A stretch of DNA of 32,000 nt from Telmatocola sphagniphila (GTDB lineage: Bacteria > Planctomycetota > Planctomycetia > Gemmatales > Gemmataceae), in assembly GCF_018398935.1 (NCBI RefSeq), contig NZ_CP074694.1:5670001-5702000 (forward strand), written 5' to 3'. The notes under the pieces were generated by a model. That model made no database searches, was not told the origin of the DNA, and saw only the letters and a program-made list of their open reading frames with translations. Every line of letters starts with the position of its first letter. The stretch's first letter is position 1. Made by a program: the position numbers and the translations under genes. Below are positions 1,085-27,084 of the stretch, piece after piece.

Positions 1085-1109
1085 CCTTGTTTTTTTATTT
1101 GGTGTGAAA

Positions 1110-1152
1110 GCCTGCGGATCTTCCTTCGCAGAAGGTTCCGCGGGCTTTTTTT
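1110..1152 (+). terminator. Rho-independent terminator after the vWA gene
   Basis: Hairpin gcctgcgga...tccgcgggc (one G-U pair) with an inner ccttc/gaagg stem, followed by a T7 run. It lies 26 nt after the stop at 1084. Confidence 0.6.
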
Positions 1153-1190
1153 CTGTTTATTTCTCAGTCTTGAAGTGAAAGGAACTCCCT

Positions 1191-2090: not shown

Positions 2091-2165
2091 TTCGCAGTTT
2101 TGCTTTTTAGCCCTTCTCCCGTCTATTCGCACTTTCATTCCAATACTACTCACCGAAGGAAAACC

Positions 2166-3515
2166 ATGATCCATTTGCAGCGCCGGCAAGTCCGGCAGTT
2201 ACGCAGCTTGTTCAAGAAATTGGGAGCGGCCCGCTGCCCAGCTCCGACTAGCCTCTTGCTGAAGACCGATTCATCCGGGCTCTCAATACAGGGCTCGATC
2301 GGCGAAGTCACGGCGATTTACCGGCTGCCGGGCTCCTTTGCCGACGAGCAGATGACCATTCCTTTTGCCGTGTTCAATGATACCGCCGGCTCGGATGACA
2401 GTGTCGTCGAAATCGTGGCCCTGGTCCACCAGAAGTTGCGCGTCGCCTGGAGTTCGGGAACGGTGCCGCAGATTCGCGAGTACGAGATTCCCGCCAGCGT
2501 TGAAAGTTGGTCTTTACCGGAGGTCTGGACGCCGATGGACCTGCGTCTGCGGGAAGCACTCACCGAGGCAATGAAGACCGCTAGTGCCGAGGCGACACGC
2601 TTTGCCGTCAATTACATCCAGTTGCGTGGCCGGACGGGCGAGGTCATTGGTACCGACTCCAGGCAACTGTTTATTGAGTCCGGATTCCCGTTCCCTTGGG
2701 AAGACGATTTGCTAATACCGCGCTGTGGACTCCTGGGAGTAGAGGAACTAAAAGGCGATTCCTTGGAGATAGGCAGAACCGCCTCGCATATGTGGTTACG
2801 ACTGGGGGCTTGGATGATCGCCCTGCAAATCGCCTCGGAAGCTCGCTATCCCGAAGTCCATCGAGCGATTCCTGCCTCTTTGGAAGCGACGCGCTGGAGG
2901 ATAGACCCGGGAGAATCGCACGGTTTGGCACAGTGCTTGAAGCAGTTGCCGGGCGAGAAAGATCCGCATCGACCGGTGACGGTGGAACTCAACGGTCATG
3001 TTGCGATTCGGGCTCGAGGAACCGAAAGTCTGCAAACGACCGAAGTTCACCTCAACCGCTCGCAGGTGGAAGGGAATCCGCTCAGCTTGGCCTTGGATCG
3101 AGACTATTTGCGGCGGGCGTTGCAGTTGGGTTTTTCAGAGTTCCAGATCGTGGATCCCGACAAGCCGATTGTTTGCCAGGAAGGCAGCCGAAGGTTCGTC
3201 TGCATGCCCTTGGGTAAGTCCTCGGTCGTAGCTTCTTCTTCCGAAGCGATTCGAGTTGAACTATTGGAACCTCAGCGAGAACTGAAGCCCAAGAGCGTTA
3301 CGGCCCAGCGCTTGCGACAGCGGGCCCAAAGCTTCACCTCGGCCCTTCTGGCAGGACTGCTGGAAGAAGCGGAAGCTCTGCAATCTCTGGGTCAAGCCCT
3401 GATAGAACGACTCGGCTCGCTGAGCCTGGAGATCCAGCGACTTCTCCCGAGCAGAAGGCCCGAACTAGTCAATGCCAATGCATCTCCCGAACTGCAGCCC
3501 GATCCCTTCATTTGA
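2166..3515 (+). CDS. DNA polymerase III beta sliding-clamp (DnaN)-like protein, divergent, with coiled-coil tail
   Basis: Several blocks match DnaN signatures by eye: GTDSRQLFI (cf. TDGHRLA), ARYPEVHRAIP (cf. G-FPDY--VIP), LALDRDYLRRAL (cf. FN--YL-DAL) and FVCMPL (cf. vvMPmR). I prefer ATG 2166 with a gaagga SD over the TTG at 2100 used by the ORF track. Confidence 0.6.
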   Translation: MIHLQRRQVRQLRSLFKKLGAARCPAPTSLLLKTDSSGLSIQGSIGEVTAIYRLPGSFADEQMTIPFAVFNDTAGSDDSVVEIVALVHQKLRVAWSSGTVPQIREYEIPASVESWSLPEVWTPMDLRLREALTEAMKTASAEATRFAVNYIQLRGRTGEVIGTDSRQLFIESGFPFPWEDDLLIPRCGLLGVEELKGDSLEIGRTASHMWLRLGAWMIALQIASEARYPEVHRAIPASLEATRWRIDPGESHGLAQCLKQLPGEKDPHRPVTVELNGHVAIRARGTESLQTTEVHLNRSQVEGNPLSLALDRDYLRRALQLGFSEFQIVDPDKPIVCQEGSRRFVCMPLGKSSVVASSSEAIRVELLEPQRELKPKSVTAQRLRQRAQSFTSALLAGLLEEAEALQSLGQALIERLGSLSLEIQRLLPSRRPELVNANASPELQPDPFI

Positions 3516-6981: not shown

Positions 6982-8544
6982 CTATTTGTTGAGATTAAGC
7001 TTGGGATGATCTTTTTGGGCTTGAAGGAATGCTTTATCAGTCACTTTCGTGCCATAGAGGTAGAACTGCTTTAGCTTGGGTAATTTGAGCAACTCTCGAA
7101 ATCCTCCATCGCCCAACTGACTGTAATTGAGATTTAGATCTTCGAGTTGGGCCAAAGAAGAAAGGAGTTTGGCATTTGCATCCGAGAAGTTGATTTTACT
7201 CAGCGATAGTTCTTTGAGATTAGACAAAGCGGAAAGGTATCGCAACCAATCTCCCTGTGGAACGGCCTCCGAAAGATCGAGTTTTTCAAGTTTAGCAAAT
7301 CTCGAAATAGCTTGGAAGGTCGCTTCCGTGGTTGGGCACCTCTCCATGCCGAGTTCTCTGATGGGGGCGTCAGTCATTAATGCTAAGCCGGTACCTGAAA
7401 TTTTAGTCTTCGAGAGTTTTAGTTCCTCTAATTTTTTGAACTGCGACAAGCTCTTAAATGCTTCGTCGGTTATATTGGTCTCACTTAGATAAAGAGAAGT
7501 GAGATTCGGAAATCGTAAGAGAGCGGAAACAGCTCGATCCGTTATTTTAGATCCTCCCAGATAAATGTACTTCACCTTTTCGGGTTTGCTGGCTTTCTTC
7601 ACCGTGGATTTTCGGAATGCCCACTCATTCATAGATTTTTGAGCGGTGGTTGGACCATCGAGCCACCCCTTCGCTATCAAGGATTCCAGCAATGCATCGT
7701 CAATATGACTCGTGTCGAAAATGAATTGCTCCGGCAGATGCTTGTCAACGATCGCCCGAATTCCAGCAGTTGATAGGGGGCTCCCTTTCATTCGAGAGTC
7801 ATGCCGACTAGTGATTTCCAAATCGGTCAAATTCGGTATTTTTGAGATGTTAATCGCTCCTTCATCGGTGAACCCATTTATGCTTTCCAAATGGAGACAT
7901 TCCATAGTAGTCTTTCCTGCGAATGGCTCAAAAGCAGCGCCGTCCAAAGATATATAGGCTAGAGATAAATTTTTCAGCAATGGTAGCTTAGCTAGTTCTC
8001 TCACTCCTGCATCGGAGATCCCATTACTCCCAACAATCGTAATCGAGTGAATATTTTTGCATCCCGCCAAAGCTTTCAGATCAGCGTCCTTAATATCGAT
8101 GCCCAGCATTACAATGCTCTCCAGATTCGGTAGCATTGCTATCAATTTCAGGCATTCCGGCTCAAGTTTTGTGTTTTGGATAATAAGAATTGTCAATCGT
8201 CTGGATTGCTTTAATAGTTTACAGTCCTCGACCGTAACATTACCATCTTCAATTAGCAGAACCCCAGATAATGGTTTATTATTCGTTAGCGATCCATAAG
8301 TCATAAATTTCCATTTTTTTGCTTCCAGGTAATTCAGCACCGTTGGATCTTCTGCATCTGGATTCAAGAAATCACTGGCCGGTAGAGTCGCTATGGGATC
8401 ATAGTTTTTGGCTTGATTTGTAGTTGACGATTGAGTTGGCTCAATAACTACCGGCTTTGGTTCAGACCTCTGACAGGAACTCAGCAAAATAGAGAGTCCG
8501 AACACAACTAACACAGTCGCTGGATACAAATCGAACTGCTTCAT
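6982..8544 (-). CDS. Leucine-rich-repeat lipoprotein
   Basis: Signal peptide with a lipobox-like LLSSC. Many tandem roughly 24-aa LRR units follow (L--L--L-L----ItD-g---L). G+C is visibly lower than in the flanking sequence. Confidence 0.85.
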   Translation of the reverse strand: MKQFDLYPATVLVVFGLSILLSSCQRSEPKPVVIEPTQSSTTNQAKNYDPIATLPASDFLNPDAEDPTVLNYLEAKKWKFMTYGSLTNNKPLSGVLLIEDGNVTVEDCKLLKQSRRLTILIIQNTKLEPECLKLIAMLPNLESIVMLGIDIKDADLKALAGCKNIHSITIVGSNGISDAGVRELAKLPLLKNLSLAYISLDGAAFEPFAGKTTMECLHLESINGFTDEGAINISKIPNLTDLEITSRHDSRMKGSPLSTAGIRAIVDKHLPEQFIFDTSHIDDALLESLIAKGWLDGPTTAQKSMNEWAFRKSTVKKASKPEKVKYIYLGGSKITDRAVSALLRFPNLTSLYLSETNITDEAFKSLSQFKKLEELKLSKTKISGTGLALMTDAPIRELGMERCPTTEATFQAISRFAKLEKLDLSEAVPQGDWLRYLSALSNLKELSLSKINFSDANAKLLSSLAQLEDLNLNYSQLGDGGFRELLKLPKLKQFYLYGTKVTDKAFLQAQKDHPKLNLNK

Positions 8545-9815: not shown

Positions 9816-9861
9816 TGGTAACCCTTGAGAATCACCGTAAGTCATTGTCAGGTAATGTTTT

Positions 9862-9991
9862 GGGTCCCACTGGCTATCTGCCAGTGACTGAGAAAGAGAA
9901 ATCAGAGAGACTTTTCGCCAACTCAGAAACACATTCGATCCGAAAACGGGAGTTATATCGAAACGGCACTGTCAGATAGCCAGTGCCACCC
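9862..9991. repeat. 130-bp element bounded by about 26-bp inverted repeats (MITE-like or recombination site)
   Basis: The left end gggtcccactggctatctgccagtg matches the reverse complement of the right end gggtggcactggctatctgacagtg, about 22 of 25 positions by eye. Each end is itself a 7-bp hairpin. A third partial copy (gggtggcactgg) lies at 9808-9819. Confidence 0.6.
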
Positions 9992-10259
9992 AAGTCTAGA
10001 TTGTACAGGGACTTGCGTTTATTGAGATGGGGTGCCAGTGTCACCCGTCGCAAACTGATAGAGAGCATCTCCATGATTCTCGACCCAGTTCGCAGGATCG
10101 AGAAATGGCAGAGGTAAAGATCGATCCATGAAGGTAACTCGGCATCTAGTCGGCATCCGTTTTTGTGAGCCGCTAGATCGGATTAGTCGGAACTCGAGCG
10201 AAAGGATTACACGAAATTCCGGTTTTGGGCGAAATTGTTAGTCGCGTGGCTAATGGCTA

Positions 10260-10808: not shown

Positions 10809-11493
10809 GAATCTGCACTCGCTTCAAAAGTACTCGTGTGAGAGTTGCTCGCGGGACATAGCCCCAGTCCGTCTCCCGGCTAGTATTTGGATGCGCTCGG
10901 AGTTCAGAAGTTACAGGTTCAGTAATAAGATTCTGCGTAACGTGCCCTCCATTAGGAAACCTCCATGAGGAAATCCTCCCCACAAATTGTGAGGGATGGG
11001 TCCAGCGACGCGAGCCCAACGCGGGAGCGATGCTGCACCCAATTTGCACCCAAAATGGCGTTTGGCGACGAAACAAGCACGAAGGATGTTTTTCGTAAGT
11101 GCTTATCCGATAACTACTTATGGATTTTTTGAGGCGTCAAAAAGTGAGCTACCCGACTAGGATTCGAATGTAAATTCGAACAGTTGGGCTTATGTTGGTG
11201 TAGCGTCTCGAACACGTCGAAGTCACGGCCATGAAAGCTGTTGCGCCGCGAACCTGTTCTCGCTGGTAATTATACCGCATTGGCCTCGCACGGCCAATAG
11301 TGCCCGCTTTTTGCCCACCCTAGATGCGTTATCTCCAGGTGGCCAATTCTCTGCCTCAAACATATTTTTCCGGTTTAAGAGGAAATTGGTCGACTCTTCA
11401 AGTGGAGTTCTTTTCAGATGATAGCGAACCATTCCGAATCAGAACCATCTATACCCTTGTACAATCCTGCCATGGGCCTAGGGAGATCGTCGA

Positions 11494-12630
11494 ATGTCAT
11501 CAGAATGGTCGCTTCTTTACCTTCTGCCAAACCTAGTCATTTCAGAGACTGTAGAGTTCGGGCCATTGGCTGTCGTCTCGAATGAGGACGAACGCCTCAA
11601 CCTTTTACTGGATCAACCAGCGGTTCAGATACTACTGAGGAATTTTACGACGGTATTCGGCGACCAAATCAAACCGGCCGCAATGATAACACGGAAGGAA
11701 GTTGCTACGCCAAGCAGAGACCAAATCATAGCATTCCGCAACTGCCTAGCATTATCAGGGTTAGCCGAAGCCCACCGAGAGTTTCTATCTGGATCTAGGG
11801 GAAACTTGCAACGCTATTCCGACTACTTTGACCTTTACCCTTTTACACCCAGTAATGATGGGGAGGAATTAATTTCTCACACTCCTGCAAATTGGGAGTG
11901 TCGATCAGAAACTCGCGACGAGTTCCGAGGGCAACCATCTGCATATTTGTCGCATCTAAACATGCTACCGTGTAAGCTGGATTTGCGATTATTGGATCTA
12001 TTACGTATACGCTGGCAAGAGTGTTTTCTACTCCGCCAAGAAACACCTAGGAACCGTCGGGTATTTCGATCTATGGAGATTGCACTTCTTGCAATGCGTT
12101 TGCCTGGAATTAGTATTCTAATTCCAACCATTCACGACATGGGAGTGAGTGCAGGACTATGGGTCAGTGCGTTCGAAATTCTAGCATACGATGGGAAATG
12201 GGCTGGTCCGAAGCAGGTTAAAGCGATGATCGGACAGGGGCCATGGCTGACCGATCAGTCACGTGCAATCGCCGTTGATTTATACGAGGCGCTTTATGCA
12301 GCTAGAAATGCCTTCATGCATGGGAATGAAGTGACATTAGCAGACCTACATCTTGGTGGTCAAACTCAGCAAAGCGTCATGCTACCTATGATTGCCCCGC
12401 TGATTTTCAGAAACGCATTGCTAGGTATTTTAGGCTTCATTGTTCCGCCAAGATTGGATGAAGTTGCGGATCAATGGCTGCCATATTACTGGAACCAGGA
12501 GCCATTCGAAAGAGCGATGACAAACGCGCTTACGTTGGTCGCTCAATCTGTCGCCGAACTTCAGAGGCTGAATGGAGACTTGGAAGTCTTGTCGGAGCAG
12601 TCCCAAGATGAAGCATCTCAAATGGATTAG
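11494..12630 (+). CDS. Hypothetical protein with HEPN-type RNxxxH motif in a helical C-terminal half
   Basis: 378-aa ORF with a gggaga SD 7 nt upstream. The hexapeptide R271-N-A-F-M-H276 (nt 12304-12321) fits the HEPN Rx4-6H signature, which has a polar residue after R. The surrounding sequence looks helical. Confidence 0.6.
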   Translation: MSSEWSLLYLLPNLVISETVEFGPLAVVSNEDERLNLLLDQPAVQILLRNFTTVFGDQIKPAAMITRKEVATPSRDQIIAFRNCLALSGLAEAHREFLSGSRGNLQRYSDYFDLYPFTPSNDGEELISHTPANWECRSETRDEFRGQPSAYLSHLNMLPCKLDLRLLDLLRIRWQECFLLRQETPRNRRVFRSMEIALLAMRLPGISILIPTIHDMGVSAGLWVSAFEILAYDGKWAGPKQVKAMIGQGPWLTDQSRAIAVDLYEALYAARNAFMHGNEVTLADLHLGGQTQQSVMLPMIAPLIFRNALLGILGFIVPPRLDEVADQWLPYYWNQEPFERAMTNALTLVAQSVAELQRLNGDLEVLSEQSQDEASQMD

Positions 12631-12794
12631 GCCTATCGTCATCTTCCGTATGCTCGAAATCTACTTCCTGGTAAAGACGAATTTGCCTGGTTTGGAATTG
12701 CGATCTCTTGGCGAGCCATACTGTTGGGATGCGCTAATAGATTCCGGCACTCACGCGGCGGCCCAGTAATAGTCGTTCCAGAGTCCGCCGTAGT

Positions 12795-12990
12795 TTAAGG
12801 CAACAGAGGCGGGTCAGCCAGACGCCTAGGGGTCTCTTCCCTGTAGAGGACCTTCGTCCGGCACTCGCTCGGAGGCGTGGTAGAAGTCGAGTACCTGCAT
12901 CGCCCCGGGGAACGATTCATGTCCCAGAGAACTTTGGCGAACCCGTACAGTTGCTAGGCAATTCGTTCTAATGATCTTATTAAGGTCTGC
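12795..12990 (-). pseudogene. Degenerate DDE-transposase fragment
   Basis: The reverse strand reads ...SFPGAMQVLDFYHASERV, then after a frameshift VLYREETPRRLADP, then a stop. The LDFYHAxE block is one I associate with ISKra4-like transposases. It is short and interrupted. Confidence 0.35.
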
Positions 12991-13124
12991 GTCTGGATGC
13001 CGACTTTAATGAGTTCAGACAACCCAAACTCGGTGAATTACGCATAATACCATACCCGGCTTCACTTTATTGCATTGTCTCAAATCACGTTCTAGTTTTC
13101 TCCTGTAGGTGAAACCGCGCGCAA

Positions 13125-16100
13125 ATGACGCTCGATATCGAAGCTCGGATCGAAGAGTGGATGAAGCTACTTCTCGATACATCTGCCAGAAACAAGCTCA
13201 TCTCTACTAAGTTCGGCCCCCGAGCTGCGCTTGAACTCCTTCGTCCTGACGCCAAGCAAGTTTGGAAATCGATGCTCGAAGGAGAAGCCGGTATTTCATT
13301 CGCCTGGAAGCGGGATTTGCTAAATGATGAGCAGAATGACGAAGGCGAAACCGATTCCGAATTGGAAGGTGATGACGCCGAGCGAGAACGCCATACCGAT
13401 TCGGAGGCGACAATTCAACTCTGTCTGTCGTCCCCGAAATTGCGGGACGAAGCGTTGTCGAAATTGACCGATAAACGGCTCGATTCCCGACTCAAAAGGC
13501 TGTCGTTGAACGCCAAGGTAAGTCTGGACGAACGCGGTGTAAATACTCTTTACCTCGCGATTGGGTTCCTGCATTGGTACGAGGCCGAGAATGCTTCTAG
13601 TGATCACCTCGCACCACTTCTTCTGATTCCCGTTCATTTGAGCCAGGAAAACCTGATCGGCAATTGGCGAATTGCGCCGCTTGATGAAGGTGCCGAACGG
13701 AACGAGTGCCTTGCCGAACGATTCCGAAACGATTTCAAGATACAACTACCCGAATTGGCGGAGGAAAGCGACGATAGTGAGCCGTTGGATAGCTACATCG
13801 AATTCATTTCAAGCGTTCAAAAAATCCTCTCCAAGTTGCCCGACCGCCGCTGGGAAATTCGCGAAGACATGATCGCCCTCGGTCATTTCGATTCCCGCAA
13901 ATTGCCCATGTGGAAGGATTTGCAGAAGAACATGAAACGCATTGCCGCGCACCGATTATGCCGGCTTATTGCAGGGGACACGGATGTGCTAGCCCACGAC
14001 CCCGGAATTCGGCCATTGGAACCGGAGGAACTCGATGCCCAGGTGCCCGTTAGCGAATTGCTCCATATCCTGCCCGCCGATTCGAGCCAACACGCAGCAA
14101 TCGAAGCAGTGAAAAAAGGTATCGATCTGGTTCTCGATGGCCCGCCCGGTACGGGAAAGAGTCAAACTATTGCCAATATCATTGCCGACCGGATCGGTGC
14201 GGGGAAAACCGTCCTGTTCGTCAGCGAAAAGGCCGCCGCTTTGCAAGTCGTTGAAAGTCGGCTTCGCGAAGCCGGTCTCGGCGATTTTTGCCTGTCACTT
14301 CACGATCCGTCGAAAACGTCACGCACTTCAGTCTGCGAGGAATTTAAGAAAGGCCTGGCATTACGGCCTGCCGCATACGACGACCCTAGCGTACGGCAGA
14401 AAAAGCAGCAGGAGACGCGGGAACACCTCAATCGATACGTTCACGCCTTGCATGAGAAGCGCGAACCTTTGGGCCTTTCCTTTTACGAGGTTTACGGGAA
14501 GCGCGCGCGATTCACCCAAATCGCGAGTCAATCCAGACTGATAATACCTGATGCGGGTGCCTGGGATCGTCATAGGCTCGAATCGGTGCGTGAGGCCCTC
14601 ACCCAACTCCATGATGCTCGAAGCGTTTTTGCTGATCCGGAACGTCATCCGTGGCAGGGTTGTTTGCCAGAGCGGTTGACCGAAGTTCTTCGCGACGATA
14701 TGCAACACAATCTTGAGCGATTGTCACACGGGTTAACCGAAGCGGAGAGAATCGCCAAAGAATGGTCGTCGATGGATTGGCTTCCCACGCGGCCCAACTG
14801 GAACGATTTCCATGTGGGCATTAACGAAGCCGGTCGGGCTTTGGATGTTCCGATTCTCCACCGTGAGTGGTTGTCAACCGATCCCCAGAAAGCCCTTCGT
14901 GCCGTCCAACAAATGCCGGCAAAGACTAGCACCCACCGTGCAGCAGTGAAAATGCTGCCCGAATTCGATATCGAAACCGTGTGCGAAGATTCTGAGATGC
15001 CACGAGCGCCGGATCGCTCAATTCCACTGAAAAAACCATACTTCGAGTCGATTCGTAGCCGATTGATAGAAGTGCAACGTGTGCTCGAACGAATGCTGCG
15101 AATGAAATCGAAATCATCTTTGGTTCGGCAGACATTAGAGGCCCTCACCGCGATCGTTCCACTGCCGTGGGAAACCACGCCTGTTACAGATCTCCCTGAT
15201 TTACTCGCACGCCTACGGGCAGTTGTCGCTGTTTGTCCGCTGCCCGCTACATGGTCCAAACACGAAGACCGATCCGAAAGACAGATCCTACTCGCACGCG
15301 GTAAGGATGCTCTGGAAAAAGCGGAAACGATTCGTGCGGGACTGCTCAAAGAAATCTCGCTACAAGCGTTCTCTTTCGAAAAAGCCGGATTAGTTGAAAA
15401 AGCCTATCCCTATCGTTCGCGGTTACGCAAACTCGGTTTCGGCTGGTCTTCTCTAAAGCGAGAATGGCGTACCCTCTACTCGACTGAATTCCCGAAGCAC
15501 GCTGAGTTCCGAAACCACGTTGAACAACTTGATAGTTTCCGTCGGCACCACATACTCGTCAAGGAATTAGTTGCCACTTGCCCGGAATTCCCCGGGTCGG
15601 AACTCTCTGCCCGCCGTTGGCAAACAGAGTGTGATCGACTCGGTGCAGTCGTTGCATTTGCCGATGGCGACAACTCCCTGCCCCTGCAACCCATTTTCTT
15701 CGAGGCCGAAATCGAAAAGCCCACACTCATTTCCCTGATCGACCGAGCTTCGGAGTCGGTGGTCGGCCTCATCTCCGAATGCGCAGAACTCGATATTATT
15801 CTGACCTTGAAGCAACTTGCTACAGGGGGCAAAATCACCGGTCGAATACAAGAAATGGACGAACTTGTTGCTCCCGTTGAAATGCAATTGAAGAATGAAA
15901 TTCTGTGTCTCGACCGCTGTGTGCGCTGGCTTCGGACGGATGCGGATGTCCCCTTCGATGTCCTCTCCGAACGTATGCCTACACTGCAAAGGCTGCGAAA
16001 CCTGCGGGACGAAATCGACCAACTTCGAAATAGTTTCCAACCCTCATTGGATTTGCAACAGGCGATTCGCCGCGAATGGAGAGCGGATGCCGAGGCTGCC

Positions 16101-18230
16101 GAAAAAGGGGAAGCCTACTTGAACCGTTGCGCAACGCCACTTCCGGAGAAAGATCGCAAAGCGCTATCGGACGAGGAATATCGACAAAACCTCGACCGAT
16201 TGCGGCATAGGGGTATCAGAGTTGGTACGGAGGGATTAACTTCGGCGTGGTCCTTCCTGACGGAGAAACTCTTCCCTTCCTCCAGTTCCGTTTCGACAGG
16301 TATCGTATTGGAGCAGTCGCCCCTCGATGAAGTCGTAGCCTGGAGTGAATCGCGACGGAAGGACGCCAATCGAATGGAGGAATGGTTGACCTACCAGCGT
16401 GTTCGCCGGGAAACGCGGGCCGTCGGTGTCGAGGAAATCATCGAGGAAATCCACCGGAAGGAAGTGAAGCTTGAGGAAGCAGCGATGGCTTTCGAATCCC
16501 GCTTTCTGGCGCAGTGGATCGATGCATGTAGCGAACCGATCAAAGAACTGTCGGATTTTCGCTTCAACAAACACGAACGATTGATCGCGGATTTTGTTGA
16601 ACGGGACAAGTCTTTAACAGCCTCCGCTTCAGATATGATCCGCTCGACATTAATGAACGATAGCTGTCGGCCATCAGATATAAAGTGGTCGAGTCGCGAT
16701 CCGAAAGTTCGAATTCTGAAGGAAGAAATTCAGAAGAAACGATCACGCAAACCAATCCGGAAGTTGTTCGCTGAAGTTTCGGCTCCTCTACTGAAGCTAA
16801 AGCCTTGCTGGATGATGTCTCCGCTTGCAGTCAGTACGTTTCTCGATTCGCCCGATTTTCACTTCGACGTAGTAATCTTCGACGAGGCTTCGCAGATTCG
16901 GCCCCATGATGCCATATGCGCGATCTACCGGGGCAAACAACTTGTTGTGGCCGGAGACCCGAAGCAATTGCCCCCCACGGAGATAGGCGTCAGGAATAAG
17001 GTGATTGCAAATGATGACGATGACAACTCTCTACTCGAACATGAGAGTATTCTCGATGTATTGCTTGCCAAATCACTCCCACAGAAACGACTGACCTGGC
17101 ACTATCGCAGCAAACGCGAGGAACTTATTGCGTTCTCCAACCAGGAAATCTACGGCGGTGAACTCGTAAGCTTCCCTTCTCCCGACGATGCCGGAGAAAG
17201 GCCGATTCAATTCGTCCACACTCCTCATGGGCGATTCATTGGCAACAAGAACGAAATCGAAGCGGCAGTCGTAGCCGATTTAGTCATCGAGCATTTCGAG
17301 CATTCTCCAAATCAATCGTTGGGAGTAATCGCTTTCAGCTTGAAGCAGCAGGAATGTATCAACGATGCATTGGAAAAAAGGCGGCGCGAAAAACCACATT
17401 TAGAGGAGCATTTCAACCGTTTTGGTTTAGAACCATTCTTCGTCAAGAATTTGGAAAACGTACAAGGCGATGCTCGGGACCACATCATCCTGAGCGTCGG
17501 TTATGCGAAGGATGAATTTGGAGCCTTAGCAATGCGATTTGGTCCACTTAACAAGAAAGGTGGTGAGCGACGACTTAACGTTGCTATCACTCGCTCTCAG
17601 CATTGTATGAGCATCGTGTCATCGATGCACCCGCTTGAGATGGATGTAGATAGATTGACAAACGATGGCCCTAAATTGCTCAAGACATTCTTGCAATTTG
17701 CAATGGATGGGCCGCAAGCAATTGCAAGAAAAACGAACAGTGTCGGTGAGGAACACGAATCTCCTTTCGAAGCCGCTGTTGCCGAGCAATTGCGTCGCGT
17801 GGGAATTCTCACGAAGCCCCAGATCGGATGTGCTGGATACCGCATTGATCTTGGAGCCTACGACGCCCTTCAACCGGGTCGCTTCCTACTTGGCATCGAA
17901 TGCGATGGAGCTATGTATCACAGCGCGGCAACTGCGCGGGACCGCGACCGATTACGACAGGAAGTCCTAGAAAGTCTGGGCTGGAAGATCGTTCGCATTT
18001 GGTCAACCGATTGGTTCAAAAACCACAAAGAACAGGTTGAACGCATTGTCAGCGAAGTTGAGAAAGCCAAGAAACGCTATGCCGAGAAGGAATTGATTCC
18101 GGCAACTAACAGGCGGGTGGTAAGCCAATCTCCGCTATTGGAAACGGCAACCAGGAATCGAAAGGAGCACTTGGCCGACCCACAAGCAACTTTAATCTCG
18201 AAACCAGTTCCATCGGGATTGTTCGTATGA
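13125..18230 (+). CDS. Giant DUF4011 / UPF1-like superfamily-1 helicase fused to a Vsr/DUF559-like (PD-(D/E)xK-fold) endonuclease domain
   Basis: N-terminal DUF4011-type blocks (LLDTSARNKLIS; GVNTLYLAIGFLHWYE...APLLLIPV). Walker A GPPGTGKS at aa 339-346 (nt 14139-14162). Walker B DEAS at aa 1253-1256 (nt 16881-16892). Further SF1 motifs VVAGDPKQLPPT, NVQGDARDHIILSVGY and RRLNVAITRSQ. The C-terminal endonuclease block is GYRIDLGAY...LLGIECDGAMYH...RDRLRQEVLESLGWKIVRIWSTDW (about nt 17757-18017). Confidence 0.9.
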   Translation: MTLDIEARIEEWMKLLLDTSARNKLISTKFGPRAALELLRPDAKQVWKSMLEGEAGISFAWKRDLLNDEQNDEGETDSELEGDDAERERHTDSEATIQLCLSSPKLRDEALSKLTDKRLDSRLKRLSLNAKVSLDERGVNTLYLAIGFLHWYEAENASSDHLAPLLLIPVHLSQENLIGNWRIAPLDEGAERNECLAERFRNDFKIQLPELAEESDDSEPLDSYIEFISSVQKILSKLPDRRWEIREDMIALGHFDSRKLPMWKDLQKNMKRIAAHRLCRLIAGDTDVLAHDPGIRPLEPEELDAQVPVSELLHILPADSSQHAAIEAVKKGIDLVLDGPPGTGKSQTIANIIADRIGAGKTVLFVSEKAAALQVVESRLREAGLGDFCLSLHDPSKTSRTSVCEEFKKGLALRPAAYDDPSVRQKKQQETREHLNRYVHALHEKREPLGLSFYEVYGKRARFTQIASQSRLIIPDAGAWDRHRLESVREALTQLHDARSVFADPERHPWQGCLPERLTEVLRDDMQHNLERLSHGLTEAERIAKEWSSMDWLPTRPNWNDFHVGINEAGRALDVPILHREWLSTDPQKALRAVQQMPAKTSTHRAAVKMLPEFDIETVCEDSEMPRAPDRSIPLKKPYFESIRSRLIEVQRVLERMLRMKSKSSLVRQTLEALTAIVPLPWETTPVTDLPDLLARLRAVVAVCPLPATWSKHEDRSERQILLARGKDALEKAETIRAGLLKEISLQAFSFEKAGLVEKAYPYRSRLRKLGFGWSSLKREWRTLYSTEFPKHAEFRNHVEQLDSFRRHHILVKELVATCPEFPGSELSARRWQTECDRLGAVVAFADGDNSLPLQPIFFEAEIEKPTLISLIDRASESVVGLISECAELDIILTLKQLATGGKITGRIQEMDELVAPVEMQLKNEILCLDRCVRWLRTDADVPFDVLSERMPTLQRLRNLRDEIDQLRNSFQPSLDLQQAIRREWRADAEAAEKGEAYLNRCATPLPEKDRKALSDEEYRQNLDRLRHRGIRVGTEGLTSAWSFLTEKLFPSSSSVSTGIVLEQSPLDEVVAWSESRRKDANRMEEWLTYQRVRRETRAVGVEEIIEEIHRKEVKLEEAAMAFESRFLAQWIDACSEPIKELSDFRFNKHERLIADFVERDKSLTASASDMIRSTLMNDSCRPSDIKWSSRDPKVRILKEEIQKKRSRKPIRKLFAEVSAPLLKLKPCWMMSPLAVSTFLDSPDFHFDVVIFDEASQIRPHDAICAIYRGKQLVVAGDPKQLPPTEIGVRNKVIANDDDDNSLLEHESILDVLLAKSLPQKRLTWHYRSKREELIAFSNQEIYGGELVSFPSPDDAGERPIQFVHTPHGRFIGNKNEIEAAVVADLVIEHFEHSPNQSLGVIAFSLKQQECINDALEKRRREKPHLEEHFNRFGLEPFFVKNLENVQGDARDHIILSVGYAKDEFGALAMRFGPLNKKGGERRLNVAITRSQHCMSIVSSMHPLEMDVDRLTNDGPKLLKTFLQFAMDGPQAIARKTNSVGEEHESPFEAAVAEQLRRVGILTKPQIGCAGYRIDLGAYDALQPGRFLLGIECDGAMYHSAATARDRDRLRQEVLESLGWKIVRIWSTDWFKNHKEQVERIVSEVEKAKKRYAEKELIPATNRRVVSQSPLLETATRNRKEHLADPQATLISKPVPSGLFV

Positions 18231-18237
18231 GGCAGAT

Positions 18238-18384
18238 ATGACGACGATCCTAGTCCTTAAACAAGCGAAGCGGACGCCGGTTTGCGAGAACCATGTGAGC
18301 TGCCCGGAAGGAGAATCATTTTTCGTCAAACACTTGGCTCAATCGATCAGTGATCGTATAGATCAATCGGAAGTGCAAAAGTAA
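18238..18384 (+). CDS. Candidate 48-aa mini-ORF coupled to the helicase gene
   Basis: ATG lies 8 nt after the helicase stop, and a gagg SD overlaps that stop. The peptide is MTTILVLKQAKRTPVCENHVSCPEGESFFVKHLAQSISDRIDQSEVQK. Below the ORF-track cut-off, with no homology evidence. Confidence 0.3.
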   Translation: MTTILVLKQAKRTPVCENHVSCPEGESFFVKHLAQSISDRIDQSEVQK

Positions 18385-18396
18385 GTCGCCAATCGC

Positions 18397-19077
18397 CTAC
18401 ATCCTCAACCCCGCCTTTCTACGCCCGTACCGCACGCATTCTTCAGAAATGATTTCAACGACGATTTCTTCGATGAGCATATCGGTCGAGGCCAGTGGGT
18501 GGAGTCTGTCCGCGATGCGATCTTGGATTTCGTCAGGCAATTTTTGCGGCAAGTATACGTGTCCGTCGGTGCCGATTATAGGGTTGACATTTACGCGGAC
18601 TTTACGGATCGGGTGTTTTGCGAAGATCGACGCACAACAACCGACGAAACGCGAGGCGGGCATAAAGAGTTCTTCGATGAAGCCGCGCCGATAGGTAATG
18701 CGTCCACCCAGGTTCGGGTCAAGAATCTTCCAATGTTGGAAATCGATTACCGCGTATATGAGCCAGGGCGTCTTCGGTTTGTGTCCGAGAACGATGGGAT
18801 GGATGCCGCGCCAAGTCATGCTCTCTTCACCGTTCCAATGCTTCTCCGCGAAGATGTGGGGAACATTGTGCGCGCTGTTCGGATCGGTTTCGGAGAACCC
18901 GATGGCGAAATGTTCATGCTCCGGTTCGGCGCATTGCAGGCGGATGAAATCGGAGAGAAAGTCCCGACCTCGTTCATCTGGCCCCTGTTCGTCAAGCCAG
19001 TCAGCGTATACCAGACGGGGCGCAACATCGTCCGGATATTCGCAAATGGTTCGGACGAAAGCGGCGCGGTCGCTCAT
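18397..19077 (-). CDS. TIGR02996 (repeat-companion) domain protein
   Basis: The N-terminus AFVRTICEYPDDVAPRLVYADWLDEQGPDERGRDFLSDFIRLQC matches the planctomycete TIGR02996 signature (P-DD-pRLVYADWLeE-Gd). Confidence 0.8.
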   Translation of the reverse strand: MSDRAAFVRTICEYPDDVAPRLVYADWLDEQGPDERGRDFLSDFIRLQCAEPEHEHFAIGFSETDPNSAHNVPHIFAEKHWNGEESMTWRGIHPIVLGHKPKTPWLIYAVIDFQHWKILDPNLGGRITYRRGFIEELFMPASRFVGCCASIFAKHPIRKVRVNVNPIIGTDGHVYLPQKLPDEIQDRIADRLHPLASTDMLIEEIVVEIISEECVRYGRRKAGLRM

Positions 19078-19421
19078 GGAGGTATTGTAGAACGACCTTA
19101 CCGAAATGGGCCAAAGTCAATGTCGAAAAGGTGAAAGTTGACAGCGACATAGGTCGATCAGAAGATGGAGAAGGTAATGGCAATCACTAAAATTGCTTTT
19201 GAAATGTAGCCAATCTAGCTTAATGCCCAGGGCTTCGAAAAGGCGACTGCCGGGCCGACTGCTACTGACCGACCCAAACTGGTCCGGGGTCTGTGAGACA
19301 AAAGAAATTAAAGGGCCTGAGAAGATTACCTGTCCAACAGTATCAGTCTTATTAACTGGTGAGACGACGCGGACTTCAAGAAATCCTTGGCATTTATCTT
19401 CTAAAGCTTTAACGTCCTCCA

Positions 19422-20330
19422 ATGCCTCGCCGCCTCCCCCCTAAGGGCGATTTTCAGCCCGATTTCTTCGCTGCCAGTTTCGCGGACATCCCGATCCGCG
19501 ACCAGCGGGATACGATGGAGAGGCCTTTTTTTAGCTTGGCCAAGAAGCCCCGTTTCGACCCAATCGAGTACCACGTCGGCGATGTCTGGCTCGAAGTAAG
19601 CGCGAATCCGATGTTCGGCATGGCCACCATCTGGGATGCCGATATTCTGCTTTGGGCTTCGACGCAAATCACCGAGGCGATTGACCGGGGAATGCCCGGC
19701 AACCGTACACTCAAATTCCACCCGCACAACCTCCTCAAATCCATCCGCCGCGAGACCGGCGGCGATCATTATGTCCGATTGCGGGCAGCCCTGGAACGCC
19801 TCACCCACACGGCGGTTCGGACCAATATCCGGGCCAATGGCAAAAAGAAGTTCGCTTCCTTCCATTGGCTGGAAAGCTGGACCGAGGTCACGGACGAAAC
19901 CACCGGCGAAACCCAGGGGATGACGATAACAATCCCCGATTGGTTATTCCAGGGCATCGTGATGAAGGGTGGTGTGCTGACTATCCACGAGGACTACTTC
20001 CTGCTCACGGGTGGAATTGAACGCTGGCTGTATCGAGTAGCTCGCAAGCATGCGGGGCACCAGGAGATTGGCTGGCAGTTTACCATGCGGCAGCTTTACG
20101 AGAAATCCGGTTCGACGGCTCGATTTTCGGATTTCGCTATCGATGTCCGGAGGCTGGTCGAATTGAATCAACTACCCGAATATTCGCTCTATCTGCATCG
20201 CAATGAGCAGGAGGAAGAGGTCATCAATTTTCTGAGGCGCAGCCAATTGGGGGTCGATGATCCGAATTACCAGTTCGAACGGAATCCCAAGCGGCGTTTA
20301 ACGCCCGCTGCGGTTCGATGGATTGATTGA
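19422..20330 (+). CDS. repA: Plasmid replication initiator (replication initiator protein A family)
   Basis: The N-terminal block DFFAASFADIPIRDQRDTMERPFFSLAKKPRFDPIEY...GMATIWDADILLWASTQI matches the conserved RPA-family signature. An iteron array follows immediately. Confidence 0.85.
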   Translation: MPRRLPPKGDFQPDFFAASFADIPIRDQRDTMERPFFSLAKKPRFDPIEYHVGDVWLEVSANPMFGMATIWDADILLWASTQITEAIDRGMPGNRTLKFHPHNLLKSIRRETGGDHYVRLRAALERLTHTAVRTNIRANGKKKFASFHWLESWTEVTDETTGETQGMTITIPDWLFQGIVMKGGVLTIHEDYFLLTGGIERWLYRVARKHAGHQEIGWQFTMRQLYEKSGSTARFSDFAIDVRRLVELNQLPEYSLYLHRNEQEEEVINFLRRSQLGVDDPNYQFERNPKRRLTPAAVRWID

Positions 20331-21355: not shown

Positions 21356-22030
21356 TTAAGCAGATTCCAATTTCATGATTTTGCTTCGCTTTTTGCTGGC
21401 GACCGCATCCGGCAGTAACTCCCTGAAAAGGGCCTGCACTTCATCGGCGGCTTCGCGGCCCCGACTCCCCAGTTTCCAGACGACTGCCCCCTGCCCCGGC
21501 GCATCGGCATAGATCTGCTTCAGAGTTAAAGCGGTCTTGGCCAGCGGAAGCTCTAAAGCTTCGGCGGCATCCTTCATATCCTGCGTCAAGCGATAGTTTT
21601 TTCCCACCATTGAAAGAACGATCACGGCTTCGGGATGGCCTCCCCGAATATCCTGGGATTGCCGTAAGACCTTGGTTGCCTGGGAAAGCGCCCTCACCTC
21701 CAACATGGAGGCTTTGCACGGGACGATAGCCAGATCCGCTCGAAGTAGTAAGGCTCGGCTGGTTTCCGTGTTGCTGCCCGGGCCATCGGCGACGACATAC
21801 TCGGCGTGTTCGCTCAGTGTTGGCAAACGATCCAAGATTTCTTCGGGGTCGGCGAGTCGTACCGTTTTAACTCCGGGTACCGCTTCGGCGGCCCAATCGG
21901 AGGAGGAATGCTGCGTGTCGCAATCGGCCAGAGTTACCGTATGGCCCTGCTCAAAAAGCCAAGCGGCTAAATGGACAGCCAGCGTGGACTTCCCAACTCC
22001 GCCTTTTGAATTAGCAACGACAATGATCAT
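21356..22030 (-). CDS. parA: ParA-family partition ATPase
   Basis: Deviant Walker A at the N-terminus (MIIVVANSKGGVGKSTLAVHLA). Size (224 aa) and context are typical of plasmid type Ib ParA. Confidence 0.9.
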   Translation of the reverse strand: MIIVVANSKGGVGKSTLAVHLAAWLFEQGHTVTLADCDTQHSSSDWAAEAVPGVKTVRLADPEEILDRLPTLSEHAEYVVADGPGSNTETSRALLLRADLAIVPCKASMLEVRALSQATKVLRQSQDIRGGHPEAVIVLSMVGKNYRLTQDMKDAAEALELPLAKTALTLKQIYADAPGQGAVVWKLGSRGREAADEVQALFRELLPDAVASKKRSKIMKLESA

Positions 22031-23398: not shown

Positions 23399-25015
23399 CT
23401 ACTTGAGAAACTCTACCAGGAAACGATGGGTAGACTGTGTTACAGGAGCAAGGCTTGAATTAACACTCAGATCGTCGCCGCTGTGCTCGACTCGACCGCA
23501 CCTGATCTGAGTGGCATACCAGAGTCCTTTCGGAGATTGTTCGGCTGCGTCGATAATCGTGGTCTCGATCCAATTTGAAGTCTTTTCCGGCATGATTTCT
23601 GATCGAACGCACATATAGTCGCGATCCGGTGCTAACCAGTAACGCCGTACATTTTTTCCCGTTTTGACATCCTGCACCGTGATCATCGCCGCTTCACTGG
23701 GGCCAATCGAAGGCTTGGGATTCAACGTGGCCCGAACTCCTTGGTTTGGTAGACCGAGCCCGGGATAGATTATGCGATCAGGACAGTACGATGGGCTGAT
23801 GGTATCTTTGTTCAAGTAACGAGTGGTTTCCATTTTGTCTACTTCCGCCTTCCACCACAACATGCGGCCGGCACTATCAGGCAGACTTTCAATCAATTTG
23901 AAAGCCAAAGGATTCGCTTCCTTGGGGAGTTTTCTCACTTCGTCTAGAAGCTGTTTTACCGCGTCCGGGTTCGGGCCATTGGCCCCCAGCATCATTTGTA
24001 ATCTTTGGATCTGAGTGAGATCGACTTCTTCACCGCTGTGGCCCTGGTCATCATGCCGTGAGCGATGAACCAGGCCGAGGGTCTTCCAATCATCCTGCTG
24101 AATGGAGGTTAAAATGGTCGCTTTGTAGTGATCGAAGGACTGACGTTGTTTTTTGGCATAATCGTCTAAGAGCTTTTTCAACTCTTTACCTGAAGTAGTG
24201 TCGATCACCTGGGCGTCCTTCGGCACATTCATCGCATACAAGTTTTCCGGACCGGATTCGGGATAGTCGATGGCATAAGTTCTCGAATAAGGTTTCTCTT
24301 GAAATTTCCATTCTTCAACCATCTTGGAGGGTAATTGCGAACCGCTTGGCACATGAAATATTTGCCGAAACTGCGGTGGAGAATGGCGGTCGTCCTCAAA
24401 ATCGAATGCGTATTCCGTCCAGCGATTGTCTCCAGAGCGTTTTTCGTCGCGGCTGGTACGAACGACCTTCATTTCATCCGGACCGGAATTCCGAACTTCG
24501 TTTTTTTCGCCAATAGATTGCAAGATCGACTTAAAAGCGGTGAAACTTTCCTCCTCATGGCTATCCGCATCGGAAATAATCACCGTCTTCGTCTTCACGT
24601 CGTAGCGTAACTCCTTATTGAGACCGAATTCGAGAAAGGCAGTGAATTTCGGAAATTTTCCCGCCGCAATTCGCTTCTTAGGGGACATCCAAATCTCAAC
24701 TTGGGCATCTTTTTTCGGATCGGACAACGTGAGCCGCACCCACGCTTGTTTTTGCATTTTGTCAAGTACTTGTGACCATGCATCGGTTGGCCAAAAGACA
24801 AATGCAGTAACAATCAAAGCGAGGGCAGCCGTTATGGACCATGTGATTTTTCGGATGCCCGTTAGTGGTCTGGAGGAATTTACCGAGACGTTTGGTTGGC
24901 CAAGCGGGATGTACTTATCCAGATCGATGTCTGGAATGGGGACCTCCAAAATGGTTTGCACGGCCAGGCGATAAGGTAAAGGCAGTTCGTCATAAGTTGG
25001 CTTTGGACTTTTCAC
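23399..25015 (-). CDS. Putative anti-sigma factor / single-pass membrane protein coupled to the ECF sigma gene
   Basis: Its GTG start overlaps the sigma-gene stop as GTGA (25012-25015). It has one TM helix (ITWSITAALALIVTAFVFW) after a short cytoplasmic N-terminus and a large extracytoplasmic domain with no motif I recognise. Confidence 0.6.
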   Translation of the reverse strand: MKSPKPTYDELPLPYRLAVQTILEVPIPDIDLDKYIPLGQPNVSVNSSRPLTGIRKITWSITAALALIVTAFVFWPTDAWSQVLDKMQKQAWVRLTLSDPKKDAQVEIWMSPKKRIAAGKFPKFTAFLEFGLNKELRYDVKTKTVIISDADSHEEESFTAFKSILQSIGEKNEVRNSGPDEMKVVRTSRDEKRSGDNRWTEYAFDFEDDRHSPPQFRQIFHVPSGSQLPSKMVEEWKFQEKPYSRTYAIDYPESGPENLYAMNVPKDAQVIDTTSGKELKKLLDDYAKKQRQSFDHYKATILTSIQQDDWKTLGLVHRSRHDDQGHSGEEVDLTQIQRLQMMLGANGPNPDAVKQLLDEVRKLPKEANPLAFKLIESLPDSAGRMLWWKAEVDKMETTRYLNKDTISPSYCPDRIIYPGLGLPNQGVRATLNPKPSIGPSEAAMITVQDVKTGKNVRRYWLAPDRDYMCVRSEIMPEKTSNWIETTIIDAAEQSPKGLWYATQIRCGRVEHSGDDLSVNSSLAPVTQSTHRFLVEFLK

Positions 25016-25548
25016 TGTGATTCTCCTTTAGATGAGTTAGAGAGTACGACGTCAAGTTTGACGCGGACCTTATGGATTGCGGCAGCCACCGCACCCGTAC
25101 TAATTTCTAAAACAGTGGCAATTTCTGAGTTCGAAAGCTGATCGAAATAGCGAAGCGCAAATACGGCGCCCTCTCGTTCCGGTAGAGCGGCAATTACCGA
25201 CCGCAAATGTTCCGCTAATTCGCGACGTACTGCATCATCGAATGGCGAACTGTTCCAAGTCGCCAACGATTCCAAAGAATGCGGATGTTCCTGGCGAAAT
25301 CTCCGCCGTCGATCCAGAGCTGCGTAGATTGCCAGACGACGGAAATAGGCTCCCCAATTGCGGATTCGATCAATTTGATTCCCGGAAATAACTTTTAGAA
25401 AAACTTCTTGTACTACTTCCTCTGCATCAGCGGCATTATCCAAAACGCGCATGGCGGTTTGAAAAATCATTCGACCATGCTCTTTGACAAGGGCGTTCCA
25501 GTTGACCGGCATATTTGTGATCTCGAATTTCCCAGCATCGAACGTCAA
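25012..25548 (-). CDS. ECF-type RNA polymerase sigma-70 family factor
   Basis: Region 2 (AADAEEVVQEVFLKV...WGAYFRRLAIYAALDRRR) and a region 4 HTH (LSNSEIATVLEISTGAVAAAIHKVRVKL). The track start is TTG at 25548; ATG at 25512 is an alternative. Confidence 0.9.
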   Translation of the reverse strand: MTFDAGKFEITNMPVNWNALVKEHGRMIFQTAMRVLDNAADAEEVVQEVFLKVISGNQIDRIRNWGAYFRRLAIYAALDRRRRFRQEHPHSLESLATWNSSPFDDAVRRELAEHLRSVIAALPEREGAVFALRYFDQLSNSEIATVLEISTGAVAAAIHKVRVKLDVVLSNSSKGESQ

Positions 25549-26140: not shown

Positions 26141-26176
26141 CAAAAGAAAAACCCGCCTCGCGGCGGGTTATTTATT
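26141..26176. terminator. Bidirectional rho-independent terminator
   Basis: 8-bp stem aacccgcc/ggcgggtt (26150-26169), flanked by an A-run on one side and tatttatt on the other. It serves the convergent genes ending at 26085 (+) and 26176 (-). Confidence 0.65.
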
Positions 26177-27084
26177 CAGGCAAGTTGTTCGGTTTTCGCT
26201 TTCTGCAGTTCGTGCAGATAGGCGGCGGCTTTTTCAGCCTGGGCGGCGGCGTTGAAGATGGCTTTCTTGTCTTCTTTCAAAACCTTCAGCCAGCAAGCTA
26301 GATAACTGGCATGGTCTTCCCGAGGCTCAGCTGTGATACCCAAATCGGAACAAAGGAAGGCGGCTCCGATCTCGGCTATGAGTTCTTCCCGGGCATACCC
26401 GGTATCTCCGAATCGTTTCGAATCAAAATTCCGATTCAGGCGGCTCTCGGCTTTGGTCCAGTGGGTGAGCTCATGCAGCAACGTGCTGTAATAGCTTTCT
26501 CGATCCTCGAAGGTTTCAAAGTTGGGCATCTGTACCAGGTCTTCGCTGGGGCGGTAATAAGCTTGGCTGCCACCGTGGCGGATGGTCGCTCCAGTTCCTC
26601 GGGCAAAAGCTTCGGCATTTTCCAAACGTTCTTGGATGTTTAACACGTTCGGCTCTACCTTGGTGAACTTCTCCGGTAATCCTTCGATCTGCTCGGCGTT
26701 GAACACCGTATAGGATTTCAGGAACGGGATATCCCGTTCCAATTCCTGGCCGTTTTCGTCTTCTTCGGTTTTGGTGAAACTGGAGGCATAGACCACCGTG
26801 GAACCATGTTCGCCTTTCTTAACGAAGGCGTTCATTTCCTTGGCTTGATTAAAAGTCATCCACCAGGGGGAATTGAAGCCCTTGGTTTCGGCATCGATCC
26901 AGAGCATTAACACATTTACCCCTCGGTAGGGTTGGCCATTGGAACGCAAGGGACGGCAAACGGGTCCGTCGGCATGTTTGGCTTTCCAGGGTTGATGCCA
27001 GGGGCGGGTTCCTGCCTCGAGCAAGGCCACAATCTTTTCGGTCACGCGGGTGTAGACATCGGGTTTGCTGTTCGGGGTCGTCAT
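26176..27084 (-). CDS. ardC: ArdC-type antirestriction protein (N-terminal ssDNA-binding domain plus zincin metalloprotease)
   Basis: N-terminal ArdC/DUF1738 signature (ITEKIVALLEAGTRPWHQPW...RPLRSNGQPYRGVNVLML) and a C-terminal HExxH (YYSTLLHELTHWT). Confidence 0.9.
   Translation of the reverse strand: MTTPNSKPDVYTRVTEKIVALLEAGTRPWHQPWKAKHADGPVCRPLRSNGQPYRGVNVLMLWIDAETKGFNSPWWMTFNQAKEMNAFVKKGEHGSTVVYASSFTKTEEDENGQELERDIPFLKSYTVFNAEQIEGLPEKFTKVEPNVLNIQERLENAEAFARGTGATIRHGGSQAYYRPSEDLVQMPNFETFEDRESYYSTLLHELTHWTKAESRLNRNFDSKRFGDTGYAREELIAEIGAAFLCSDLGITAEPREDHASYLACWLKVLKEDKKAIFNAAAQAEKAAAYLHELQKAKTEQLA

Follow-up and report, generated by a model that had tools for sequence, protein, structure and literature searches.

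The 32,000-nucleotide stretch of Telmatocola sphagniphila DNA analysed here (contig NZ_CP074694.1, positions 5,670,001 to 5,702,000; hereafter, the window) contains three consecutive open reading frames (ORFs) on the forward strand, encoding proteins of 378, 1701 and 48 amino acids (aa). The ORF listing of the window and the corresponding translations confirmed the positions and common orientation given for them in an earlier note on this DNA, which had been made from the sequence alone. The note interpreted the three ORFs as an undescribed conflict system, in which a ribonuclease module (the 378-aa protein) is paired with a helicase-deoxyribonuclease (the 1701-aa protein) and a coupled mini-ORF. 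The analysis reported here was entirely computational, being based on sequence comparison and predicted structure, and it favours a different interpretation: the two large genes are most probably independent accessory genes that adjoin each other in a plasmid-like element rather than members of an operon-type system, and the mini-ORF is probably a chance frame. The proposal of a three-gene system fails because the genes show no conserved linkage, the helicase is already listed in defence catalogues, and the mini-ORF has no relatives.

Linkage was assessed reciprocally. For the 378-aa protein family, 80 genome loci (1.3 Mb), 69 of which comprised at least 1.5 kb of downstream sequence, were searched by tblastn at E <= 1e-3; for the helicase family, 80 metagenome loci (0.91 Mb), 60 of them with at least 1.5 kb of upstream sequence, were searched by tblastn and by hmmsearch with a family hidden Markov model (HMM) at E <= 1. 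Helicase relatives were found in none of the 80 loci of the 378-aa family, and neither a member of the 378-aa family nor a relative of the mini-ORF was found in any of the 80 helicase loci. The earlier note had proposed to look for homologues of the 378-aa protein beside DUF4011 helicases in other genomes, and the outcome of this check was negative, also for the genomic contexts of eight close homologues, none of which included a DUF4011 gene. The most widespread neighbour occurred in 8 of the 80 loci for the 378-aa family and in 10 of the 80 for the helicase family, values attributable to related genomes. The larger helicase relatives P0120 and P0040 are also solitary. Judging from these neighbourhoods, the helicase family is single-gene in organisation and has no conserved partner. 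The note's own caveat, that the adjacency of the two large genes may be accidental, was the correct reading, given the absence of linkage and the presence of a 494-bp gap with a transposase-like fragment between them.

Table 1. Coordinates of the genes, domains and other features in the window (position 1 is the first nucleotide of the 32,000-nucleotide stretch)
Feature	Position	Strand	Evidence or remark
378-aa protein, uncharacterised family	11494-12630	+	ORF and translation
RNxxxH (Rx4H) motif, R271-N272-A-F-M-H276 in 'AARNAFMHGN', followed by G277-N278	12304-12321	+	Alignment A2
Intergenic gap, 494 bp	12631-13124	.	Between the two large genes
ISKra4-like transposase fragment, peptide MQVLDFYHASE	12868-12900	-	Six-frame translation; tblastn against plasmids
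1701-aa DUF4011/SF1 helicase/Vsr-like nuclease	13125-18230	+	Pfam, PADLOC, NCBIfam
DUF4011 N-terminal domain, residues 16-199	13170-13721	+	Pfam PF13195, 107.4 bits, E 9e-31
Walker A P-loop GPPGTGKS, G339-S346, K345	14139-14162	+	GPPGTGKSQ in the sequence; alignment A3
Second part of the SF1 core (C-terminal part of AAA_11, and AAA_12), residues 1244-1500	16854-17624	+	Pfam; contains motif II D1253-E1254
MTES_1575/Vsr-like endonuclease, residues 1548-1644	17766-18056	+	Pfam PF18741, 118.1 bits
End of the helicase ORF, where the alignment to relatives stops	18195-18230	+	Start of the C-terminal domain of the relatives
48-aa mini-ORF	18238-18384	+	Starts 7 nt past the helicase stop codon
RepA (RPA family)	19422-20330	+	E 1e-79
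ParA/MipZ-type ATPase	21356-22030	-	Plasmid-like module
ArdC (ArdcN and zincin peptidase)	26176-27084	-	Plasmid-like module
ORF matching only the C-terminal part of the N6_N4 DNA methylase model	28007-28759	-	Plasmid-like module

Pfam profiles confirmed the domain composition that had been read from the translation of the 1701-aa protein, namely a DUF4011 domain, a UPF1-like superfamily 1 (SF1) helicase core matching AAA_11 and AAA_12, and a Vsr/DUF559-like nuclease matching MTES_1575, with a weaker match to DUF559 over the same nuclease region (24.2 bits, to residue 1645). Walker A and motif II of the helicase are separated by an insert of about 900 residues. In an alignment of 32 family members (A3), comprising the window protein and its 31 closest full-length relatives, the invariant positions are G339-T348, F1252-D1253-E1254, S1256-Q1257 and E1592-G1595, and A1255 is conserved in at least 90% of the sequences; the E1592-C1593-D1594-G1595 residues belong to the IECDG block (residues 1591-1595). 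With no variation in the P-loop, in motif II or in the E-C-D-G residues of the nuclease across this alignment, the catalytic machinery of the window copy is, at the level of sequence, intact, including the ATPase residues K345 and D1253/E1254 and the nuclease residues E1592/D1594.

The helicase is identical to a DUF4011 protein of T. sphagniphila (P0031) and has more than 6,300 relatives at E <= 1e-10. The closest of them share 36-39% identity with it, are about 1750-1800 aa long and belong mostly to Planctomycetota where the organism is named by the source; as a single-protein query against the genome contig collection, the helicase retrieved no relatives. The suggestion that the locus is uncatalogued did not hold for this gene. 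A scan with the PADLOC HMMs, in which PADLOC's own coverage rules were not applied, revealed the single-gene 'phage defence candidate' PDC-S37 (PDLC05009) as the best of 10 models, with 1186.8 bits and E = 0, and the Hhe model (PDLC02194) scored 590.9 bits. The related NCBIfam models for the anti-phage protein ProA (NF058533) and for the DUF4011 domain-containing anti-phage protein Hhe (NF042953) scored 1151.8 and 855.9 bits versus cut-offs of 1500 and 2000, respectively. For the closest homologues of the helicase, the scores were in the range of 1300-1358 bits for PDC-S37, 1258-1317 bits for ProA and 908-933 bits for Hhe. Since the Hhe and ProA scores are below the equivalog cut-offs and PDC-S37 is the best model, the helicase can be placed by its profile scores in the PDC-S37 clade of the DUF4011/Hhe/ProA superfamily, as an equivalog of neither Hhe nor ProA. 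A literature search did not find the primary sources defining ProA and PDC-S37.

The window copy differs from its closest relatives at the C-terminus. At least 90% of the A3 sequences carry conserved columns past the end of the helicase, which correspond to a C-terminal domain of about 80-90 aa with the pattern 'SIExVP...RRLGFKRTGxKIRxRI'. We considered whether this domain could be encoded in another frame of the mini-ORF or of the downstream DNA, and rejected this possibility, since a tblastn search with the C-termini of nine homologues gave no signal downstream of position 18203 in any frame at E <= 10. In addition, the PDC-S37 match of the helicase stops at profile position 1366 of 1550; some homologues reach position 1454. 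The presence of the domain in at least 90% of A3, the absence of a downstream trace and the early end of the PDC-S37 match together indicate that the 3' end of the gene has apparently been lost or replaced. This copy may be impaired, since it stops at the point at which a conserved domain starts in its closest relatives. In the broader and more distant set of 80 helicase loci, tblastn detected the C-terminal domain in only 15, and it may therefore be dispensable.

In the 378-aa protein, an N-terminal alpha/beta domain (residues ~1-155) is followed by a C-terminal domain that is all-helical and HEPN-like (~158-320), and by a final helix that is not conserved. The RNxxxH signature of HEPN type, reported in the earlier note, is indeed present at R271-H276. 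In an alignment of 56 diverse family members (A2), both the arginine and the histidine of this motif are invariant, as are R82, R192, A200, S225, E228 and G277, and N272 and N278 are conserved in at least 90% of the sequences. In the AlphaFold2 (AF2) model of the protein, obtained with a predicted local distance difference test score (pLDDT) of 86.7 and a predicted template modelling score (pTM) of 0.86, the motif is located at the end of a long helix in the helical domain; the model of the C-terminal helical domain has a pLDDT of 86.6. The classic form of the HEPN motif is R-[N]-x3-H-G, with a polar residue after the arginine.

Profile searches provided no formal assignment. Among the HMM searches that the earlier note had proposed, those for DUF4011, AAA_11/AAA_12 and MTES_1575 gave matches, as described above, but no HEPN family was matched significantly. 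The 378-aa protein had no match in Pfam, PADLOC or NCBIfam, and the ApeA/HEPN_Apea models of PADLOC and Pfam matched neither this protein nor its 56 relatives. Sub-threshold HMM matches were obtained for four of the 56 members, to Csx1_HEPN (0.042) and HEPN_RiboL-PSP (two members) of Pfam and to CARF_HEPN of PADLOC (E = 0.001). The top 50 Foldseek hits of the helical domain included the HEPN structures 4nqf, 7bxo_D (the best, TMt 0.56), 8xdj_B and Cas13b, all non-significant at E >= 0.4; the full-length model gave nothing significant against PDB and BFVD, and a PDB sequence search with profiles of the family gave nothing meaningful. The UniRef name for the 185-aa NCBI version of the protein, 'Apea-like HEPN domain-containing protein', is a source label only. 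Taken as a whole, these data make membership of the 378-aa protein in the HEPN superfamily likely.

Whatever its fold, the family is widespread. A word-indexed search found 30 homologues, all with no more than 35% identity, and the two that carried a source-given name are from planctomycetes. A profile search revealed 1402 representatives at 50% identity; the best 150 listed are nearly all about 350-400 aa long and align end to end. Members were found in Planctomycetota, Alphaproteobacteria, Acidobacteriota, Desulfobacterota, Verrucomicrobiota, Firmicutes, Chloroflexota and other groups, and the family is still absent from the Pfam, PADLOC and NCBIfam catalogues. Only two loci were detected in a search of viral contigs, which argues against a phage family.

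The window carries the complete ORF, which matches the family over its whole length. The NCBI annotation covers residues 194-378 only, as a 185-aa protein (QVL31625.1; around position 12073), and a read-assembly variant of 111 aa (P0299) diverges by a frameshift after residue 103, near 'aggggaaac' around position 11800. Both the short call and the variant may reflect frameshift heterogeneity or a gene-calling error. As a separate observation, the window protein is shorter by some 20-25 residues between 'WLTDQSRA' and 'IAVDLY' (positions 12100-12250, residues ~250-255) than the 23 other members of the alignment A1, all of which have this segment.

The immediate neighbours of the 378-aa family genes in 80 diverse genomes are mostly ordinary genes, and a minority are related to defence or mobility, including AbiV in three cases and AAA_21, AAA_15, SLFN_AlbA_2, DUF4145 and integrase genes in two cases each. 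This pattern fits an accessory, island-prone single gene. A conserved operon partner was sought and rejected, since the tight same-strand partners observed upstream (23 of 77) and downstream (13 of 72) are mutually unrelated. In several planctomycete contigs, close homologues of the 378-aa gene are located directly upstream of, and on the same strand as, other genes of defence type. These are a 607-aa TIR_2 protein gene separated by a 31-bp gap, beside a TaqI-type restriction-modification gene (L173-176); GmrSD (L178); a PLDc_2 protein gene plus a ResIII helicase gene inside a restriction-modification island (L001); and a Ser/Thr kinase gene with a 4-nt overlap and a PemK toxin gene nearby (L177).

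Three alphaproteobacterial loci (L068, L079 and L082) share a gene of about 390 aa upstream of the 378-family gene with an identical spacing of 24 bp, which looks like a subclade-specific two-gene arrangement.

The mini-ORF was described in the earlier note as a coupled gene, and this was not borne out. It sits in the sequence just past the truncated end of the helicase. Chance alone yields many ORFs of 40-50 aa in this DNA (the 12 kb examined contain 101 of at least 40 aa), so that its existence alone is no evidence of a gene. It has no family match in Pfam, PADLOC or NCBIfam; in a collection of 15 billion proteins it forms a singleton cluster seen only in a read assembly of the same organism; and tblastn found no relative in 160 related loci. 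Considering its common size, its singleton status and the absence of family matches and relatives, the mini-ORF is probably a chance reading frame and not a gene.

The surroundings of the two large genes had been described as insertion-sequence (IS) and recombinase debris, which is weakly supported by one ISKra4-like peptide in the gap. The only database matches of this peptide, obtained by tblastn against plasmids, are genes annotated as ISKra4 family transposase, with E values of 0.09-0.3, and a Pfam scan was empty. In the gap itself, neither a consensus promoter nor a terminator site was found, and no Rfam family was matched. The N-terminus of the helicase aligns from residue 1 with its family, which indicates a start of its own and, presumably, a separate promoter within the gap.

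The locus was also thought to lie on a plasmid. In agreement with this, genes for RepA, ParA and ArdC are located nearby (Table 1), but a free plasmid is unlikely, since the public record with these proteins is a 6,592,641-bp contig of T. sphagniphila; the plasmid-like module has therefore probably been inserted into the chromosome or joined to it in the assembly. A megablast search of positions 11000-18500 against the PLSDB plasmids gave no match, and scans of the window for repeats, sigma-70 promoters, terminators, tRNAs and Rfam families yielded nothing informative.

Several other features were observed in the window. Upstream of the 378-aa gene, a 27-nt inverted repeat (89% complementary, with an 80-nt spacer) at 9860-9993 may represent a mobile-element end or an RNA hairpin; none of the ORFs of at least 100 aa scanned at 9.3-11.1 kb, where this repeat is located, had a family match. 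Between the end of the helicase and repA, at 18397-19134, two long ORFs of 226 aa (- strand) and 211 aa (+ strand) overlap on opposite strands; neither has a family match, and the 211-aa product is a singleton cluster. Farther away, positions 20-3515 harbour three co-oriented genes encoding a 354-aa protein with weak similarity to VWA_2, a 299-aa DUF6744 protein and a 471-aa protein with no family match. At 6982-8544 (- strand), a gene for a 520-aa leucine-rich-repeat protein adjoins a weakly DUF1559-like (planctomycete) ORF in a region of lower GC content (0.43-0.44). Within 23399-25548 (- strand), an extracytoplasmic function (ECF) sigma factor gene (25012-25548) overlaps by 4 nt with a downstream 538-aa ORF with no Pfam match, and the two could be a sigma/anti-sigma-like pair.

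A role in conflict or defence is plausible for both large genes on the basis of their sequences. By analogy with Hhe, the SF1 ATPase of the helicase would load on, or move along, DNA that is foreign or aberrant, and the Vsr-like nuclease at the C-terminus would nick or cut it. The 378-aa protein would be a HEPN-type RNase, the activity of which is controlled by the N-terminal alpha/beta domain, and, like HEPN proteins of the Abi or ApeA type, it would act alone. The adjacency of the two genes would result from the accretion of defence-type genes in an island and from rearrangement in a mobile region.

Some of our results weigh against this interpretation. PDC-S37 is only a candidate defence family, and neither HMM nor fold comparisons linked the 378-aa protein to HEPN at a significant level. 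Even the nearest relatives of the two genes share just 35-39% identity with them, and a coupling that arose recently in this lineage would be beyond the reach of comparative data. The two large genes are co-oriented and both of defence type; moreover, the frequent location of planctomycete 378-aa homologues immediately upstream of other defence genes could mean that the protein is a modular partner and does not simply reside in the same defence islands. Under the latter assumption, the family would comprise stand-alone HEPN-type defence or abortive-infection nucleases serving in planctomycetes as a modular front gene upstream of interchangeable effectors, namely the DUF4011 helicase-nuclease here and the TIR protein, GmrSD, PLD and helicase, or Ser/Thr kinase elsewhere; we consider this decidedly unlikely.

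Four rival explanations, which are not mutually exclusive, were considered. It is somewhat unlikely that the 378-aa protein is not a HEPN RNase at all and that its R...H pair has another function, for instance in binding, in regulation or in a hydrolase of another kind. Such a possibility would be consistent with the lack of significant HMM or fold matches to any HEPN family, with the invariant residues R82, R192, S225 and E228 outside the canonical HEPN signature, and with the mostly ordinary immediate neighbours across 80 genomes. However, the motif has the classic HEPN form with a polar residue after the arginine, is invariant and lies in an all-helical domain; every recurring sub-threshold match is to a HEPN family, and UniRef gives the protein an Apea-like HEPN name. 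Decay of the locus, with the helicase inactivated by the loss of its C-terminal domain in a rearrangement and the gene pair remaining as debris of an accessory region, is unlikely. In its favour are the missing domain, which at least 90% of the 31 closest full-length homologues possess, the transposase fragment upstream of the helicase, the NCBI annotation of the 378-aa gene, limited to the last 185 aa, and the frameshift after residue 103 in one read-assembly variant of this gene. On the other hand, the 5.1-kb helicase ORF is intact with all catalytic motifs conserved, the 378-aa ORF is complete and matches its family over the whole length, and the rarity of the C-terminal domain in the more distant loci (15 of 80 by tblastn) suggests that it may be dispensable.

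That the helicase is a housekeeping, or DNA repair and recombination, helicase-nuclease merely resembling Hhe, rather than an immune protein, appears improbable. In its favour, homologues at E <= 1e-10 number more than 6,300, and many reside on large chromosomal contigs beside ordinary genes such as those for glycosyltransferases and peptidases. In addition, a conserved DUF4011 core gene flanks the defence hotspot cDHS1 in every Pseudomonas aeruginosa isolate (PMC10250203), PDC-S37 is only a candidate, and the scores are under the NCBIfam equivalog cut-offs. However, ProA and Hhe, the strongest named relatives, are annotated as anti-phage proteins, the clade is included in PADLOC on defence-island grounds, and the gene is located in a mobile, plasmid-like region beside another gene of defence type. 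A lineage-specific system of two or three genes, in which the HEPN RNase and the helicase-nuclease, possibly with the mini-ORF, would act as sensor and effector of abortive infection, is highly improbable. The co-orientation, adjacency and defence-type nature of the genes, as well as several planctomycete contigs in which a 378-aa homologue immediately precedes another defence effector, could be taken in its favour, but both reciprocal tests were negative (0/80 and 0/80), the helicase family is solitary everywhere examined, the 494-bp gap contains, on the opposite strand, a fragment resembling a transposase, the mini-ORF forms a singleton cluster, and the 3' truncation of the helicase points to rearrangement at this site.

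The case illustrates that two genes of defence type sharing an orientation within an island are no evidence of a system. The helicase represents a divergent, possibly truncated member of an already listed family, which it extends by a planctomycete example from a plasmid-like element. The 378-aa family, being large, phylogenetically broad and uncatalogued and having an invariant HEPN-like motif, is the sole part of the locus worth following up; if it is indeed an RNase-based defence, it would provide one more single-gene HEPN family for annotation pipelines.

Among known systems, the 378-aa protein resembles ApeA and the Abi HEPN proteins (AbiV, AbiU2, AbiD/F), which share with it a single-gene organisation, a variable context, an Rx4-6H motif in a helical domain and an extra N-terminal domain. 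It differs from them in that no Pfam or PADLOC model of these proteins matched the window protein or the 56 family members, and in that the 378-aa family has additional invariant residues.

The closest known counterpart of the helicase is PDC-S37, the best-scoring model for both the helicase and its closest homologues, which has a similarly solitary organisation; the window copy differs from it in ending at profile position 1366 of 1550, before the C-terminal domain. The PDC entries of PADLOC are candidates and not validated systems (PMC11514479). ProA has the highest NCBIfam score (1151.8 bits), with an alignment spanning helicase residues 5-1666, but this score is below the cut-off of 1500 and only model positions 356-1723 of 1903 are covered, the first ~355 and the last ~180 positions being absent. 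Mokosh (MkoA/MkoC) and Nhi are likewise SF1 helicase-based defences, and the helicase has weak matches to MkoA (81 bits) and MkoC (66 bits); however, these are confined to the helicase core, and the Mokosh and Nhi families have no DUF4011 domain. The PLD nuclease of Mokosh is also missing, as no PLD domain was detected by Pfam in the helicase or in the scanned neighbours, the flanking ORFs having no family match, and the PADLOC model of Nhi did not match the helicase at E <= 0.1. Hhe, a single-gene defence whose activity has been demonstrated by experiment, has helicase and nuclease domains; as in the window protein, DUF4011, a split SF1 core and a Vsr-like nuclease are combined in one polypeptide. 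The window protein nevertheless belongs to a different clade, with 855.9 bits versus the cut-off of 2000 and the similarity residing mostly in the C-terminal 740 residues. For hhe of Escherichia coli, a genome-wide phage knockout screen identified candidate triggers in the DNA-metabolism gene cluster of T7, which suggests that what it senses is a process and not one particular protein (bioRxiv 10.1101/2024.10.10.617714).

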